A DNA stretch of 18,384 nt from a virus (Duplodnaviria; Heunggongvirae; Uroviricota; Caudoviricetes). Where the stretch lies: IMG/VR virus record IMGVR_UViG_2645727539_000015; one strand, written 5' to 3'. Shown in pieces: positions 9,675-14,819 of the stretch. How positions within the stretch are numbered: the stretch's first letter is position 1; each line of letters opens with the position of its first letter. The position numbers and the translations under genes are program-made. The notes beneath the pieces are model-generated. The model did no database searches. It saw only the letters and a program-made list of their open reading frames with translations, and was not told the origin of the DNA.

Positions 9675-10040
9675 ATGGCTGTGCTTCGTGCGTTACCGGG
9701 CAGAATCAAAACGCTGAACACCCGGCGGATAAATGTCCTGAAGGGTGAACAGCGTCGTGTCAGTGGCAGTGCCCGGGTTTACCTCAAACGTCGTATCTGG
9801 CTGAGGGATGCCGGACACTGTTGTCTTTGTGGACGCGTGGTTGACCTTTGTGACAGTGAACTCGATCACCGCATTGCACTTCAGTTTGGTGGTGGTAATG
9901 AGGAAATGAATCTCTGGACGCTCTGTACCGAATGCCATCGCCAGAAGTCAGTCAGTGAAACGGCGAGTGGTATGCCGGACCCGACGTTGCCGGAAGTGTC
10001 CGGAGGTCATGGCAGGGCAGACGATATCATCGGACTGTGA
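9675..10040 (+). CDS. HNH endonuclease (terminase-associated type)
   Basis: Motif CCLCGRVVDLCDSELDHRIALQFGGGNEEMNLWTLCTECHRQK (Cys pairs plus H-N-H); GAGGA SD; sits upstream of terS as in HK97-like phages. Confidence 0.8.
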   Translation: MAVLRALPGRIKTLNTRRINVLKGEQRRVSGSARVYLKRRIWLRDAGHCCLCGRVVDLCDSELDHRIALQFGGGNEEMNLWTLCTECHRQKSVSETASGMPDPTLPEVSGGHGRADDIIGL

Positions 10041-10330: not shown

Positions 10331-10894
10331 GTGCTGACAACGCAAAAACGAAAATTTGCGCTGGCGCTCATGTCCGGGAAAAACAAAACAGCGTCAGCCA
10401 TTGCCGCCGGTTATTCGGCGAAGACCGCCAGGGTTAAAGGCTCGCAGCTGGCAAAAGATCCGGAGGTGCTCGCGTTTATAGCCCGTAAACAGTCCGAAAC
10501 GGTGGAGGTGGATGAGGTTCCTGTTTACCGGCAGAAAAAATCAGAGCAGGAGGATAAACCCCGTCGCCGTGAGGTGGCTGCAATACCACAGCCGGACGAA
10601 ACAAATCCGGAGATGCCACCGCCCGTGGTGATATCTCCTGGTATTGAGTATATGGAGGACGGTCTTCCCGATCCGGTGAAAGCGATGGGGCGTCTTCTGG
10701 TGGAGAACATTAATACCGACCCCAGGCTGGCGCTGGATGCGGCTTATAAGCTGGCGCAGTTCACGCACCACAAAAAAGGGGATGCCGGTAAAAAATCGGC
10801 AAAAGGTGACGCGGCGAAAAAAGCGGCTAACCGTTTTGCGGTGCCACTACCACCCCGACTGGTGGTGAATAATGATAATGAGGGCAACGGATGA
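10331..10894 (+). CDS. terminase small subunit
   Basis: N-terminal HTH region KRKFALALMSGKNKTASAIAAGYSAKTARVKGSQLAKDPEV typical of the Terminase_2 family; GTG start after GGAGGAGG; stop overlaps the terL start (ATGA). Confidence 0.7.
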   Translation: MLTTQKRKFALALMSGKNKTASAIAAGYSAKTARVKGSQLAKDPEVLAFIARKQSETVEVDEVPVYRQKKSEQEDKPRRREVAAIPQPDETNPEMPPPVVISPGIEYMEDGLPDPVKAMGRLLVENINTDPRLALDAAYKLAQFTHHKKGDAGKKSAKGDAAKKAANRFAVPLPPRLVVNNDNEGNG

Positions 10895-12552
10895 TACCTG
10901 TGTGGAGCACGGCCTGCCCGGACTGGGCAGAGCGCCTGAAAAAGGGGCTGTCGATTATTCCGGCCCCGATTTATCCGGATCAGGCTGCACATGCACTGGC
11001 GATTTTTAAACAACTGCGGATTGTGGATGCACCGGGCAGCCCGACGTTCGGGGAGTCCTGCGCACAGTGGGTGTTTGACCTGGTGGCGGCCCTGTTTGGC
11101 TCCTACGATGCGCAGACTGGTGTACGCCATATCAAGGAAGTTTTTATCCTTATCCCCAAGAAAAACTCGAAGTCCACGCTGGCCGCAGGGATCATGATGA
11201 CTGCACTGTTACTGAACTGGCGGCAGGCGGCGGGCTACACGATTCTGGCCCCGACAGTGGAGGTGGCAGCCAACGCCTTCAACCCTGCCAGGGATATGGT
11301 ACGACGGGACGATGATCTGGATGACCTCTGTCAGGTGCAGACACATATCCGGACCATCACCCACCGGGTGACAGACACCACCCTGAAGGTGGTGGCAGCC
11401 GATCCGAATACGGTGTCCGGTATCAAGTCCGTGGGTACGCTGATTGATGAGCTGTGGCTGTTTGGCAAGCAGTACAAGGCGGAGGACATGTTACGTGAAG
11501 CCATAGGTGGCCTTGCCTCCCGCCCGGAAGGGTTTGTGGTGTATACGACCACCCAGTCGAATGAACCGCCCGCCGGGGTGTTCAGACAGAAACTGCAGTA
11601 CGCCCGGGATGTGCGCGACGGCAAAATTCATGATCCGCACTTTCTGCCGGTGATCTTTGAACACCCTCCTGAAATGGTGGAAAGCGGGGCTCACCTGCTG
11701 ATGGAAAACCTCGCCATGGTCAATCCGAATCTCGGCTATTCAGTGGATGAGGCCTTTCTGTACCGGGAGTATCGAAAAGCACGGGAAGCCGGTGAAGAGA
11801 CATTCCGGGGCTTCATGTCAAAACACGCCAATGTGGAAATTGGTCTTGCCCTGCGCTCTGACCGCTGGGCGGGGGCGGATTTCTGGGAAGAGCAGGGCCG
11901 TTGTATCAGCCTGGACGATATCCTGCTGCGTGCTGATGTGGTGACAGTGGGGATTGACGGCGGAGGGCTGGATGATCTGCTGGGGATGTATGTGATTGGG
12001 CGTGACCGGGAGACCCGCGAATGGCTGGGCTGGGGCCATGCCTGGGCGCATGAAACCGCGGTGGTCCGACGGAAGAGCGAGGCGTCCCGGTTTCAGGATC
12101 TTGTTGCCTGTGGAGATATGACCATTGTCCGGCGTGTCGGGGATGACACGGCGGAAGTGGCGGAATATGTGCGTCGCATTCATGAGGCTGAGTTACTGGA
12201 CCATATCGGTATTGACCCGTCAGGGGTGGGGCAGATTCTGGATTCACTGGCGGAAGCCGGGATCCCTGAAGGAATTGTGGTGGGGATAAGCCAGGGCTGG
12301 AAACTGGGTGGGGCCATCAAAACCACCGAGCGCAAACTGGCTGAAGGGGTGCTGATTCACGGTGACCAGCCCCTGATGGCCTGGTGTGTCGGCAATGCCC
12401 GGGTGGAGCCTAAAGGTAACGCCATCCTTATTACCAAACAGGCCAGCGGACGGGGGAAAATTGACCCGCTGATGGCGCTCTTCAATGCGGTATCCCTGAT
12501 GTCCCTGAATCCGGAGCCCAAAAAGAAAGAATATGCGGTTTTTTTCATATAA
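10891..12552 (+). CDS. terminase large subunit (553 aa)
   Basis: Length, position and conserved blocks (FILIPKKNSKSTLAAGIMM Walker-A-like region; C-terminal nuclease region VTVGIDGGGLDDL...IGIDPSG) match phage large terminases. Confidence 0.9.
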   Translation: MIPVWSTACPDWAERLKKGLSIIPAPIYPDQAAHALAIFKQLRIVDAPGSPTFGESCAQWVFDLVAALFGSYDAQTGVRHIKEVFILIPKKNSKSTLAAGIMMTALLLNWRQAAGYTILAPTVEVAANAFNPARDMVRRDDDLDDLCQVQTHIRTITHRVTDTTLKVVAADPNTVSGIKSVGTLIDELWLFGKQYKAEDMLREAIGGLASRPEGFVVYTTTQSNEPPAGVFRQKLQYARDVRDGKIHDPHFLPVIFEHPPEMVESGAHLLMENLAMVNPNLGYSVDEAFLYREYRKAREAGEETFRGFMSKHANVEIGLALRSDRWAGADFWEEQGRCISLDDILLRADVVTVGIDGGGLDDLLGMYVIGRDRETREWLGWGHAWAHETAVVRRKSEASRFQDLVACGDMTIVRRVGDDTAEVAEYVRRIHEAELLDHIGIDPSGVGQILDSLAEAGIPEGIVVGISQGWKLGGAIKTTERKLAEGVLIHGDQPLMAWCVGNARVEPKGNAILITKQASGRGKIDPLMALFNAVSLMSLNPEPKKKEYAVFFI

Positions 12553-12615
12553 CCCTGTTCACCCTGTAACCATCATGGACCGCTGCGGCGGTTTTTTTAT
12601 TTTCAGGAGGCTAAT

Positions 12616-14553
12616 GTGACTCTTAAACGGGCCTGCTCCCTGCTGACGGTGAAATCCTTCAGTGAGGATGAGCGGGTGATCACCGGGATTGCGTCAACGC
12701 CTTCTCCGGATCGGGATGGTGACATCCTGGAGCCGGAGGGCGCGGAGTTTGGCAGTGCGATCCCGTTTCTCTGGCAGCATGACCATTCCCGCCCGGTGGG
12801 GCAGTGTACGGTGCGCCGGGTCAGCGAAGGGCTGGAAATCACGGCAACACTGGCGAAGCCCGTGCCGGATATGCCATCGCAACTGGCTGCCAGGCTGGAT
12901 GAGGCCTGGGCGGCCATTAAGACCGGGCTGGTCAGGGGGTTGTCCGTGGGCTTCCGTCCTCATGAATACACCTTTCTGGACGGAGGTGGACTGCATTTTC
13001 TGCGCTGGGAGCTGATGGAGGTGTCTGCCGTCACCGTGCCCGCGAATGCGGAATGCACCATCCGGACCATTAAATCTTACGACCGCCTGTTTTCTGCCGC
13101 GTCCGGCAACCGGAAACCGGTGGTGAAAATCGCATCTTCTGCCGGCGCTGCGGCACAGTCAACAACCGTTTTTCATAAGGAAAAGACCATAATGAATATT
13201 GGCGAACAGATTAAAAGTTTTGAAAACAAGCGTGCAGCACTGGCAGCCTCCCTTGAGGAGGTCATGACCAAAGCCGCAGAGGAAGGGCGCACGCTGGATG
13301 TGGAGGAGGAAGAGCATTACGACAACACCGCAGCGGAAATCCGTCAGGTGGATGCGCATCTGAAGCGCCTGCGTGAACTGGAAGCCGGTAAGGCCGCCAC
13401 GGCACAGCCGGTGAAACAGGCTGGTAACGGGAATTTGGCCGCGGTGGCTTCAGCGCCGGTGATCCGTGTGGAGCAGAAACTGGATAAGGGGATTGGTTTC
13501 GCACGTTTTGCCAAATCGCTGGCTGCGGCTAAAGGTGTCCGCTCTGAAGCCCTGGAAGTGGCCCGTCGTCAGTATCCGGATGACAGTCGTCTGCATCATG
13601 TCCTGAAATCGGCAGTGGGCGCGGGGACCACCACGGATCCGCAGTGGGCAGGCAGCCTGTCTGAATATCAGGAATACGCACAGGACTTTATTGATTACCT
13701 GCGTCCTCAGACCATTATCGGGCGATTTGGTCAGGGCGGGATCCCGGCCCTTCGTCAGGTGCCGTTCAATATCCGTGTGCACGCCCAGGTGTCGGGCGGT
13801 GCTGCCGGCTGGGTGGGTGAGGGTAAGGCAAAACCCCTGACGAAGTTTGATTTTGAATCCATCACCTTCAGTCATGCGAAGGTGTCGGCCATTGCGGTAC
13901 TGACGGAAGAATTGATCCGTTTTTCCAGTCCGGCTGCTGATGCACTGGTCCGTAATGCGCTGGCGGAAGCGGTGGTGGCGCGTCTGGATACAGACTTTGT
14001 GGACCCGAAAAAAGCGGCGGTGGCAGATGTCTCCCCGGCGTCCATCACCCATGATGTGAAGGGCACGGCATCAAGCGGTAACCCGGATGCGGATGCAGAG
14101 GCGGCGTTTGGACAGTTTGTGGCAGCAAACCTGCAGCCCACCGGTGCGGTCTGGCTGATGTCCAGCACCAATGCCCTGGCGCTGTCCATGCGTAAAAATG
14201 CGCTGGGTCAGAAGGAATATCCGGACATGACCCTGCTGGGTGGCTCCTTCCAGGGGCTGCCGGTGATTGTCTCCCAGTACGTGGGTGACCAGCTGGTGCT
14301 GGTGAATGCCCCGGATATTTATCTGGCGGATGACGGCGGCGTGGCAGTGGATATGTCCCGCGAGGCATCACTGGAAATGCAGTCTGATCCGACCGGCGAC
14401 AGTACCACGCCGTCGCCGGTGGAGCTGGTTTCCATGTTCCAGACAGGCAGCGTGGCCATCCGTGCGGAGCGCTGGATCAACTGGCGTCGTCGCCGTACCG
14501 CGGCGGTGGCGGTGATCACAGGAGTGAACTACGGCAGTGCGTCCGGCGGCTGA
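12616..14553 (+). CDS. prohead protease (HK97/S78-type) fused to HK97-fold major capsid protein (645 aa)
   Basis: N-terminus ITGIASTPSPDRDGDILEPEGAEF...WQHD...PVG...GLSVGF...EVSAVTVPAN is prohead-protease-like; a central coiled-coil/delta-like segment follows; the C-terminal ~400 aa are capsid-like (AGWVGEGKAKPLTKFDFESITFSHAKVSAIAVLTEEL). GTG start after AGGAGG. Confidence 0.8.
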   Translation: MTLKRACSLLTVKSFSEDERVITGIASTPSPDRDGDILEPEGAEFGSAIPFLWQHDHSRPVGQCTVRRVSEGLEITATLAKPVPDMPSQLAARLDEAWAAIKTGLVRGLSVGFRPHEYTFLDGGGLHFLRWELMEVSAVTVPANAECTIRTIKSYDRLFSAASGNRKPVVKIASSAGAAAQSTTVFHKEKTIMNIGEQIKSFENKRAALAASLEEVMTKAAEEGRTLDVEEEEHYDNTAAEIRQVDAHLKRLRELEAGKAATAQPVKQAGNGNLAAVASAPVIRVEQKLDKGIGFARFAKSLAAAKGVRSEALEVARRQYPDDSRLHHVLKSAVGAGTTTDPQWAGSLSEYQEYAQDFIDYLRPQTIIGRFGQGGIPALRQVPFNIRVHAQVSGGAAGWVGEGKAKPLTKFDFESITFSHAKVSAIAVLTEELIRFSSPAADALVRNALAEAVVARLDTDFVDPKKAAVADVSPASITHDVKGTASSGNPDADAEAAFGQFVAANLQPTGAVWLMSSTNALALSMRKNALGQKEYPDMTLLGGSFQGLPVIVSQYVGDQLVLVNAPDIYLADDGGVAVDMSREASLEMQSDPTGDSTTPSPVELVSMFQTGSVAIRAERWINWRRRRTAAVAVITGVNYGSASGG

Positions 14554-14597
14554 GTCTGATGAGGAGGACGGGAGGCGTGCGCCTCCCGTAACAGGTT

Positions 14598-14819
14598 ATG
14601 GCAAAGATCCGATATCTGCAGGGCACGCATGATGCCCGGGCCGGGGATATCCGTGATGTGGCACAGCCGTGTGCGGAGGTGCTGGTTCGCCTGGGAAAGG
14701 GGGAGTACATCACGGTGCGACGTCCGGCAGGTCAGAAAAAGAAACGTGATGCGGAGCATGGCGAATGTGGAACCTTTTACGGCGAACCCGAAAAAACCAG
14801 AAATCAGGACGTGACGTAA
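14598..14819 (+). CDS. hypothetical small protein (73 aa), overlaps the portal start by 55 nt
   Basis: ORF from the track, preceded by a perfect 7-bp hairpin at 14570-14587; no recognisable domain. Confidence 0.25.
   Translation: MAKIRYLQGTHDARAGDIRDVAQPCAEVLVRLGKGEYITVRRPAGQKKKRDAEHGECGTFYGEPEKTRNQDVT

Follow-up and report, generated by a model that had tools for sequence, protein, structure and literature searches.

A single reading frame of an Escherichia coli prophage joins an S78 prohead protease, a scaffold-like segment and an HK97-fold capsid domain, with a conserved candidate internal start

The window analysed here is a stretch of 18,384 nucleotides, and the element that hosts the gene under study is a lambdoid (Pankowvirus-like) E. 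coli prophage. Following terS (10331-10894) and terL (10891-12552, + strand; Pfam TerL_ATPase and TerL_nuclease) is a single open reading frame of 645 amino acids (12616-14553, + strand), lying between the terL stop (12552) and the next ORF (from 14598), that is, within 12553-14597. It begins with GTG (12616-12618) behind the ribosome-binding site AGGAGG (12605-12610), an initiation region for the full-length product that was read from the sequence (12605-12618, + strand) and has an SD duplex energy of -10.3 kcal/mol. GTG opens the fusion in all 71 E. coli-type loci in which a start motif was found, and ATG does so in 18 of the 21 other relatives analysed. Next come a conserved ORF of 73 amino acids (PHROG 829; 14598-14819, + strand), situated between the capsid and portal genes and overlapping the portal start by 55 nt; an 861-aa portal gene (14765-17350, + strand), with a portal domain at about residues 1-454 and a C-terminal extension of about 400 residues; and a head-tail adaptor of the Ad1 or gp6-like connector kind, recognized by profile matches (17347-17673, + strand). 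In the window's prophage copy an IS element directly follows the adaptor gene.

The first-pass annotation had given the order as terL, protease-capsid fusion, portal and connector, and had treated it as a departure from the usual one. The order is correct, and the annotated neighbours agree with it. It is indeed unusual, but it is not peculiar to this locus. It is fixed in a large lineage already described, in members with separate protease and capsid genes as in those with the fusion; PAJU2, the Stx1a/Stx2c phages, Burkholderia vB_SBP33 and Moraxella Mcat7 all belong there. A synteny comparison showed the order to be conserved in relatives and annotated likewise in PAJU2; in 29 loci with tblastn hits the succession terS-terL-fusion-small ORF-portal-Ad1 was uncontradicted, and the full set from terS to Ad1 was found in order in 19 of them.

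That the 645-aa frame combines protease, scaffold-like and capsid parts had been proposed from the sequence, and HMM matches together with a confident AlphaFold model bear this out; the two Pfam families named at that stage, Peptidase_S78 and Phage_capsid, were both matched. The N-terminal part (residues 17-154; 12664-13077, + strand) is assigned by PF04586, fold and alignments to the HK97 gp4-type prohead serine proteases. PF04586 covers residues 48-152 with 34 bits (cut-off 21); the stricter equivalog TIGR01543 gave 46.7 bits, under its cut-off of 59. BLASTP aligned the domain to HK97 gp4 at 29% identity (E = 1e-8), and hhalign against gp4 returned a probability of 85%. In the BLASTP alignment Ser110 (GLSVGF; codon 12943-12945, + strand) falls on gp4 Ser114, and His55 (FLWQHD; codon 12778-12780, + strand) lies one column off gp4 His65. 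Both residues are invariant in 113 diverse homologues. Their gp4 counterparts, His65 and Ser114, we take to be the catalytic residues (roles from Duda et al. 2013). The domain was modelled with a pLDDT of at least 93, and a Foldseek search of BFVD with the N-terminal part recovered stand-alone prohead proteases, for example that of Streptococcus phage SpSL1 (TM-score on target 0.65), as well as protease-capsid fusions. No ClpP or S49 domain was matched at the N-terminus by Pfam or NCBIfam profiles. By these sequence and model criteria the domain belongs to Peptidase S78 and is a predicted protease.

The AlphaFold model of the whole protein has a mean pLDDT of 86 and was built on an alignment of 113 cluster representatives; a shallow alignment of 18 sequences (at least 73% identical) gave a pLDDT of 41.7 and was not used for the fold search. 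The protease domain is followed by a flexible linker of 38 residues (155-192; 13078-13191, + strand; pLDDT below 50 at residues 155-190), whose sequence and length vary, with indels, in alignment A1. A helical hairpin resembling the scaffolding delta domain then spans residues 195-262 (13198-13401, + strand), its two helices (195-222 and 229-262) having a pLDDT of about 96; the HK97 delta domain is part of the TIGR01554 model, whose alignment begins with its third position at residue 204. Between this segment and the capsid domain is a junction (residues 263-284; 13402-13467, + strand) with a pLDDT below 50 at residues 268-281 and indels in A1, which is the probable region of maturation cleavage.

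The remainder, from about residue 285 to 645 (13468-14550, + strand), is an HK97-fold major capsid domain by PF05065, TIGR01554 and Foldseek. PF05065 Phage_capsid matched residues 386-635 with 53 bits (cut-off 24.2), TIGR01554 major_cap_HK97 residues 204-584 with 76.5 bits (cut-off 27.5), and PHROG 617 the full length (residues 1-639) with 869 bits. Foldseek against the PDB with the C-terminal part gave a probability of 1.0 for Bxb1 (E = 1.7e-14), HK97, D3 and T5, with TM-scores on target of 0.63-0.73 for HK97 heads and proheads. The capsid part had no match to HK97 gp5 by BLASTP or hhalign, and a PDB sequence search gave only a weak match to Bxb1; the assignment of the HK97 fold therefore stands on the HMMs and the fold search, by which the domain belongs to the HK97-family major capsid proteins. 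Lys-Asn isopeptide cross-linking (chain mail) is no condition of belonging to that family. We regard the S78-scaffold-capsid architecture of the gene, taken alone, as very nearly certain.

The fused frame is widespread. The gene is present in 1252 of 5426 complete E. coli genomes, and 1249 complete E. coli genomes carry the same 645-aa frame; genes 95-99% identical to it occur in 93 records of Stx-type and related E. coli phages, and the frame is also found in complete, separately named records of Stx-converting phages such as 2851, YYZ-2008 and 1717. Full-length homologues extend across Enterobacterales and occur in Alpha- and Betaproteobacteria, and full-length fusions of 630-680 aa make up most of the best 150 representatives (50%-identity clusters). 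A scan of viral contigs yielded 80 loci, 73 of them near-identical E. coli-type copies (95-99% identity), in which the GTG start and the internal-start context described below are fixed within the lineage. A further homologue search, run with a diverse profile, contributed little: nearly all the sequences it brought up were the same Enterobacterales ones.

Relatives in which the two genes are separate exist in Snodgrassella (loci L025 and L028), Acidovorax (L024), Burkholderia vB_SBP33 and Moraxella Mcat7. Their existence, and the IS element after the adaptor gene, which may mean that this prophage copy is defective, could be taken to suggest that a frameshift from sequencing or assembly, or the loss of a stop codon in a defective prophage, feigns the fusion. 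We give this practically no credence. The identical frame recurs in the 1249 genomes and the separately named Stx phage records, the isolated phage PAJU2 carries the fusion, and full-length fusions prevail among the best cluster representatives; conservation this wide refutes an artefact or decay. The possible frameshift raised by the first-pass annotation was not found: there is one frame, which some 1250 complete E. coli genomes conserve as a fusion. Conservation excluded a frameshift, an assembly artefact and a pseudogene alike.

The gene is bracketed by two hairpins, which we regard as conserved elements, terminator-like or RNA-stabilising by prediction. A weak GC hairpin with seven T residues had been noted earlier in the gap between terL and the fusion, and it was found there (12577-12604, + strand): GGACCGC-TGCG-GCGGTTT (12577-12594; stem 12577-12583/12588-12594, loop TGCG) followed by T7. 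A terminator scan picked it up, but the scan found 4 terminator-like sites where 7.9 were expected, so that the hairpin alone is not above chance. A hairpin and T-run stand at the same place in 17 related loci (ACCCGC-NNNN-GCGGGTTTTTT), with the stem kept and the loop variable; the window has a weakened version of this stem. Past the stop codon, at 15 nt, lies a GC-rich hairpin (14568-14589, + strand; loop GTGC); the perfect 7-bp core described before (14570-14587) is present and extends to 9 bp. It folds with -19 kcal/mol (z = -2.3) and lacks a T-run in the window. All relatives examined have a GC hairpin directly after the stop, with a T-run in four of them (L005, L011, L012 and L025).

These hairpins might set stoichiometry, the upstream one as a partial terminator and the downstream one as a stabilising or terminating structure, which together would adjust capsid mRNA relative to terminase and portal mRNA. 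The conserved positions of both elements argue for such a role, as does the HK97 record, where gene 4 is preceded and gene 5 followed by annotated putative terminators. Against it stand the weakened upstream stem of the window, whose folding energy does not rise above that of shuffled sequences (z-score -1.1), and the missing downstream T-run. Late operons of lambdoid phages are, moreover, read under Q antitermination. The stoichiometric problem that the fusion poses is the ratio of protease to capsid, which the hairpins cannot alter because they lie outside the ORF; as regulators of that ratio they were rejected on account of their location. We thus think a stoichiometric role unlikely, and it is in any case compatible with the explanation preferred below rather than a true alternative to it. 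Within the ORF, the sequence holds a feature that could govern the protease:capsid ratio more directly.

At the boundary between linker and scaffold-like segment, an in-frame ATG (13192-13194, Met193) is preceded by the ribosome-binding motif AAGGAA (13177-13182), the two forming a candidate internal start (13177-13194, + strand) that is conserved in the family. Met193 aligns with the start codon of the separate capsid gene in Snodgrassella L025 and L028, Acidovorax L024, vB_SBP33 and Mcat7, and the stand-alone capsid proteins in the representative library begin at query residues 193-196. It is invariant in alignment A1 despite the variable linker before it. Among 113 representatives of distinct 50%-identity clusters, 102 place a Met ahead of the conserved E197, at a distance of 1-8 (mostly 4-5) residues; of the 11 lacking it, 8 have Val or Leu at the aligned position.

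The residues just before this Met follow a pattern, positions -5 to -3 being enriched in K/R, then K/G/E, then G/E. On the RNA, an AAGGA core lies 6-10 nt 5' of the ATG in every Enterobacterales locus, and the corresponding sites are AGGAGG in PAJU2 and AAGGAG in a Rhizobium phage. Gly at the site is encoded by GGA in 17 of 17 loci, a codon that accounts for only 2-33% of the Gly codons in those genes; loci without Gly at the site obtain GGA from AAG-GAA, in another codon register. The surroundings are distinctive as well. The GC content of the window's gene is lowest (0.317) and its RNA structure weakest around the internal start, and in 9 of 13 loci tested the 50 nt around the ATG rank in the lowest 0.3-2% of windows for GC; likewise, in 9 of the 13 they fall in the weakest 0.5-4.5% for RNA structure. 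The GC dip is weak in L023 and PAJU2, and the structure dip in L023, L021 and PAJU2. The SD itself is modest in the window (AAGGA, -6.2 kcal/mol), and an equally good upstream match occurs at about 16-23% of in-frame codons in these genes; with a background rate of about 16%, we did not take SD duplex energy alone as evidence. What carries the argument is conservation, together with codon choice and local composition; the conservation statistics are uncorrected for phylogeny. Taken together, the conserved Met, motif, rare GGA codon and unstructured context make it probable that, like lambda C/Nu3, the gene gives rise to two nested products.

The gene might instead make the 645-aa product only, with one protease for each capsid subunit and autocatalytic processing after assembly; Met193 and the purine-rich motif would then be leftovers of an ancestral start, or be kept for the sake of the protein, for example for capping of the first scaffold helix. 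The PAJU2 homologue is read in this way in the literature, as a capsid polyprotein for which autocatalytic cleavage was proposed (Uchiyama et al. 2009, as cited in PMC8306868), and Nocturne116 ORF18, of the same three-part layout, is described likewise (PMC13595954). The internal SD score is not in itself unusual, and by our own estimate a T=7 procapsid would still have room for about 415 protease domains of about 21 kDa. Some observations count directly against nested products: the 5' SD is much stronger than the internal one, ribosomes arriving from upstream could occlude the internal site, PMC8306868 presents the PAJU2 polyprotein without mentioning a second start, and 11 of the 113 representatives have no Met at the site. 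A leftover, however, would be expected to erode. Around this site the linker has fully diverged, with indels, but four features have persisted between lineages as distant as 33-57% identity: the ATG, the GGA core, the rare GGA codon and the AT-rich, unstructured context. The survival of the GGA core through a change of codon register (AAG-GAA versus AAA-GGA) argues for selection on RNA rather than on protein. We therefore consider a single polyprotein product rather doubtful, if worth serious attention.

In the reading that we prefer, with two nested products, translation from GTG 12616 would give the full-length 645-aa protein, and translation from ATG 13192 would give a scaffold-capsid protein of 453 residues without the protease. 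ATG 13192 would be the former start of a once separate capsid gene, still equipped with its ribosome-binding site. The scaffold and capsid parts would let both products co-assemble around the portal, and the procapsid would enclose the tethered protease domains, which would need no separate targeting signal. The proteases would then cut off the linker, the scaffold and themselves at about residues 263-290, leaving a mature capsid protein of some 360 residues. How much protease each capsid receives would depend on how the two starts compare in strength, the GTG having a strong SD and the ATG a weak one within an AT-rich, unstructured stretch. This explanation as a whole, of a three-part head-assembly gene with nested products, seems to us somewhat better than an even proposition. 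With similar, modest confidence we suggest that the "polyprotein" genes of the family, in the Stx1a/Stx2c phages and PAJU2, are each two nested genes, the protease-free scaffold-capsid protein being the building block and the full-length protein the subunit that carries the protease.

As a type of head gene, the fusion is ordinary and already known. Since this type of head module is well populated and long annotated, we do not flag the fusion as a discovery; the one new proposal, and a testable one, is the internal start that we infer at Met193. For annotation, it is worth recording that the NCBI pipeline name "phage major capsid protein" hides the protease, and that the name "portal" for the 861-aa protein hides a second fusion. 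An internal start, if real, would explain how phages with the fused gene avoid having one protease per capsid subunit, and it would be a bacterial example of the nested-gene logic of lambda and the herpesviruses (C/Nu3, UL26/UL26.5), extended to the capsid protein itself. It would also bear on the use of such genes for virus-like particles and on virion proteomics of Stx phages.

By sequence, the gene belongs with the PAJU2 gp03/Stx-prophage type (PHROG 617). PAJU2 gp03, annotated in its record as "prohead protease fused capsid protein" and in UniProt P85500 as "capsid polyprotein", is homologous along its whole length (tblastn, 48.7% identity across residues 1-642) and has the same layout of S78 protease, linker, scaffold and HK97-fold capsid. 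The two loci share the order terS-terL-fusion-small ORFs-portal-gp07-Ad1, and the internal ATG is at the same aligned place. There are two differences: the internal ATG follows a canonical AGGAGG in PAJU2 (-10.8 kcal/mol) and AAGGA in the window, and the 861-aa ORF of the window fuses what PAJU2 encodes in two genes, portal (464 aa) and gp07 (334 aa). Closer still are the Stx1a/Stx2c phages and related E. coli O157 prophages (among them YYZ-2008, a Pankowvirus; 2851; 1717; Stx2a_WGPS6), which have the same gene at 95-99% amino acid identity and the same 7.4-kb packaging and head module at 95-97% DNA identity. Their records name the product "major head protein/prohead protease", "capsid and scaffold" or "major capsid protein". 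Where YYZ-2008 carries stxAB, three tRNAs, a DNA methylase and a TerB-like ORF are found in the prophage of the window, which also differs by the IS element right after the adaptor gene.

HK97 is similar in its parts and different in their arrangement. Its gp4 shares the protease family and the catalytic Ser and His, its gp5 also has the scaffold as an N-terminal helical domain of a capsid protein with the same fold, and hairpins bracket the protease-capsid unit in both. In HK97, however, protease and capsid are separate genes after the portal (terL-portal-protease-capsid), while the window has them in one frame before it, and the capsid sequences have diverged beyond the reach of BLASTP and hhalign. 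Salmonella phage Gifsy-2 reportedly, from work of Effantin et al. in 2010, has a tripartite capsid gene with a ClpP/lambda-C-type protease. Pseudomonas phage MD8 gp5 is a tripartite capsid gene with a protease of the same type (PMC8508860). Both share the order protease, scaffold, capsid in one gene, but their protease is of the lambda C/S49-ClpP type and that of the window is S78; the Gifsy-2/MD8 and S78 fusions are independent and use non-homologous protease families. Membership of the window's gene in the Gifsy-2/MD8 type was rejected, its N-terminal domain being S78 with ClpP/S49 not found.

The same domain order is frequent among siphoviruses with small genomes (PMC9671004). Fusions of the NCBIfam NF045541 type (scaf_prot_MCP2, protease/MCP fusion) have it in a different sequence family; membership there was also rejected, as the model matched only the protease-linker part (residues 48-284) with 52 bits against a cut-off of 525. 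Nocturne116 ORF18, of another sequence family too, comprises an N-terminal prohead protease, a scaffold and a capsid domain, with the mature N-terminus at residue 243, and cryo-EM has shown its capsid protein in the cleaved, mature form (PMC13595954). Protease and scaffold genes nested in frame are known from lambda C/Nu3, HSV-1 UL26/UL26.5 and HFTV1 gp17/gp17.5 (bioRxiv 10.64898/2026.09.13.751334). Like these, the window's gene may give a long product with the protease and a short one, from an internal start, without it. In those systems, however, the shared part is the scaffold only and the capsid gene is separate, whereas in the window it would comprise scaffold and capsid together.

The ORF at 12616-14553 encodes a 645-aa protein from a GTG start with AGGAGG 5 nt upstream. 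The first-pass annotation had read it as a prohead protease fused to the major capsid protein, and Pfam searches found both Peptidase_S78 (aa 48-152) and Phage_capsid (aa 386-635) above their gathering scores. The reading is further borne out by NCBIfam (major_cap_HK97, aa 204-584, 76.5 bits; proheadase_HK97, under the equivalog cut-off), by PHROG 617, which covers the protein end to end (869 bits), and by an AlphaFold model; the protein falls outside the NCBIfam fusion family NF045541 (52 bits vs 525). The model, built from an alignment of 113 diverse homologues, has a mean pLDDT of 86 and clear domain limits. Its protease domain, rich in beta structure, spans aa 17-154; a disordered linker (aa 155-190) leads to a hairpin of two helices (aa 195-262), and a second disordered stretch (aa 268-281) forms the junction to the capsid domain, which begins at aa ~285. 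Among solved structures, the modelled capsid domain hits HK97-fold capsid proteins (Bxb1, E = 1.7e-14; HK97, target TM-score up to 0.73). Against a viral structure library, the full-length model hits other 500-730-aa proteins called "prohead protease" or "major capsid protein"; its N-terminal domain alone hits stand-alone prohead proteases. Ser110 aligns with the HK97 gp4 nucleophile Ser114 and His55 lies one column off gp4 His65; both are among just eight invariant columns of the 113-sequence alignment.

The initial observation and interpretation were correct overall. The fusion architecture is an already known and very common head-gene type. GenBank records of near-identical genes call the product "major head protein/prohead protease", and gp03 of Pseudomonas phage PAJU2, 48.7% identical over its full length, is annotated "prohead protease fused capsid protein". 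The classic case is reportedly the "tripartite capsid gene" of Gifsy-2, described by Effantin et al. in 2010. The fused gene is present in 1252 of 5426 complete E. coli genomes, in up to seven copies per genome; homologues 73-77% identical number thousands of proteins across Enterobacterales, and most of the best 150 representatives of 50%-identity clusters are fusions of 630-680 aa. This wide conservation of the fused frame excludes an assembly frameshift or a decaying pseudogene. Analogous one-gene arrangements occur in Pseudomonas phage MD8, with a lambda-C-type protease (PMC8508860), in many small actinobacteriophages (PMC9671004) and in Lactococcus phage Nocturne116, where by cryo-EM the mature capsid protein begins at precursor residue 243 (PMC13595954).

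The window covers the late region of a lambdoid prophage of the E. coli type. In gene order it carries a DNA N6/N4 methylase gene (1031-1969), a cluster of tRNA-Met(CAT), tRNA-Arg(TCG) and tRNA-Arg(TCT) (2010-2259), a TerB-domain ORF (2357-2860) and a NanS-type esterase gene, followed by holin, lysozyme, Ant, Rz, HNH endonuclease, terS and terL, and ends with the fusion ORF, a 73-aa ORF, an 861-aa portal, the Ad1 adaptor and an IS element. Over the 7.4-kb packaging/head segment, identity to Stx1a/Stx2c-converting phages such as YYZ-2008 (genus Pankowvirus), 2851 and 1717 is 95-97%. YYZ-2008 and similar Stx phages carry stxA/stxB upstream of the esterase gene, whereas the window has the methylase, tRNA cluster and TerB ORF there, with toxin genes absent from 1031-2860. 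The HNH gene (9675-10040) lies directly upstream of terS, as is usual in HK97-like cos phages, whose HNH protein helps the terminase. The IS element (~17680-18384; rve-family integrase-core transposase ORF 17692-18369, minus strand) starts ~6 nt past the Ad1 stop codon. Similarity to YYZ-2008, which itself goes on with a head-closure gene, stops at 17679, and because of this interruption the prophage copy may be defective.

The order terL, fusion, portal, connector, noted at first pass as a departure from the usual one, holds in the window and beyond it: terS-terL-[protease-capsid]-small ORF-portal-Ad1 is kept in every related locus with these genes detected, in Enterobacterales, more distantly in Alpha- and Betaproteobacteria, and in isolated phages. 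In some relatives (Snodgrassella, Acidovorax, Burkholderia phage vB_SBP33, Moraxella phage Mcat7) protease and capsid genes are separate with the order unchanged. The two genes lie in different frames in the Snodgrassella loci L025/L028 (6001-8048) and are divided by a stop codon in the Acidovorax locus L024 (5943-8012), with gaps of 24-48 nt. The fusion therefore arose inside a lineage already having this order, and the Snodgrassella and Acidovorax modules are useful comparators for its origin. The 73-aa ORF between the capsid and portal genes (14598-14819, PHROG 829) overlaps the portal start by 55 nt and has no Pfam match; tblastn found it, at 34-56% identity, in 18 of 23 unrelated-genome loci having the capsid-portal interval.

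Judged from its sequence, the 861-aa "portal" ORF (14765-17350) is itself a second gene fusion, the portal part being aa ~1-454 only. Its C-terminal ~400 aa (~16127-17347) are homologous to PAJU2 gp07 (28% identity, E = 5e-27), which is a separate 334-aa ORF 3' of the portal, and betaproteobacterial relatives have a separate 363-380-aa ORF at this position. Within the extension, 3.6 copies of a 162-bp tandem repeat (16292-16881; 92% matches) encode 54-aa protein repeats, and close to the C-terminal end there is a weak CBM_5_12-like motif.

Both hairpins proposed to flank the fusion gene were found, with counterparts in relatives. The one between terL and the fusion gene (12577-12604), with its T-run, is weak and taken alone not above chance; however, 17 related loci have the same element there, and in them the stem (ACCCGC/GCGGGT) is stronger, the loop varies freely and a T-run follows. 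Downstream of the gene, the 9-bp hairpin at 14568-14589 (-19 kcal/mol, z = -2.3) is matched by one immediately 3' of the stop codon in every relative examined, with a T-run in some but none in the window's copy. Since the HK97 record also annotates putative terminators 5' of gene 4 and 3' of gene 5, such hairpins are a trait common to these head modules.

A conserved internal start at Met193 (ATG 13192) is probable from the sequence comparisons, as a combination of conserved signals. In alignments Met193 falls precisely on the codon that starts the capsid gene in unfused relatives, and it also lines up with the N-terminal residues of stand-alone capsid proteins from a representative library; in fused genes it is invariant, though the linker before it differs in sequence and length. 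Of 113 representatives, each from a distinct cluster, 102 carry a Met 1-8 residues (mostly 4-5) ahead of conserved Glu197; in 8 of the other 11 the aligned residue is Val or Leu. At the positions 3-5 residues ahead of this Met, Lys/Arg, then Lys/Gly/Glu, then Gly/Glu are over-represented, and their codons spell AAGGAG-like strings. In the DNA, AAGGA stands 6-10 nt before the ATG in every Enterobacterales locus, AGGAGG in PAJU2 and AAGGAG in a Rhizobium phage. Where Gly is used in the motif its codon is GGA (17/17 loci), although GGA makes up 2-33% of Gly codons in those genes, and the window, Proteus and Candidimonas obtain the same GGA in another register, from AAG-GAA; this argues for selection on nucleotides, not amino acids. 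The energy of the internal Shine-Dalgarno pairing is unremarkable alone, because ~16% of in-frame codons score equally well. Few 50-nt stretches of the gene are richer in AT or less structured than the one surrounding the ATG (window: GC 0.34 vs 0.60 for the gene; MFE -5.8 vs a mean of -14 kcal/mol). By GC content the site ranks within the bottom 0.3-2% of windows in 9 of 13 loci tested and, likewise in 9 of 13, by RNA structure within the weakest 0.5-4.5%.

Internal initiation would yield two nested in-frame products, the 645-aa full-length protein and a 453-aa scaffold-capsid protein. The two would co-assemble and so bring the tethered protease into the shell, where it would then cut off linker, scaffold and itself. 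From these data we infer internal initiation, co-assembly, cleavage sites and product ratios. A pure polyprotein, every subunit carrying its own protease, is the less likely reading. It is the one published for PAJU2 gp03, cited as a capsid polyprotein for which self-cleavage is proposed (PMC8306868); the conserved signals at Met193 favour two products. The full-length frame starts with GTG in all 71 E. coli-type loci with a start motif found and with ATG in 18 of 21 other relatives analysed, and both groups have ATG at the internal start; the GTG may be a cut, specific to the E. coli-type lineage, in the share of protease-bearing subunits. What the conserved internal start adds to the known architecture is modest and testable, and parallel nested products are made by lambda C/Nu3, HSV-1 UL26/UL26.5 and archaeal virus HFTV1 gp17/17.5. 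Unlike in those systems, the part shared by the two products of the fusion gene would include the capsid protein.
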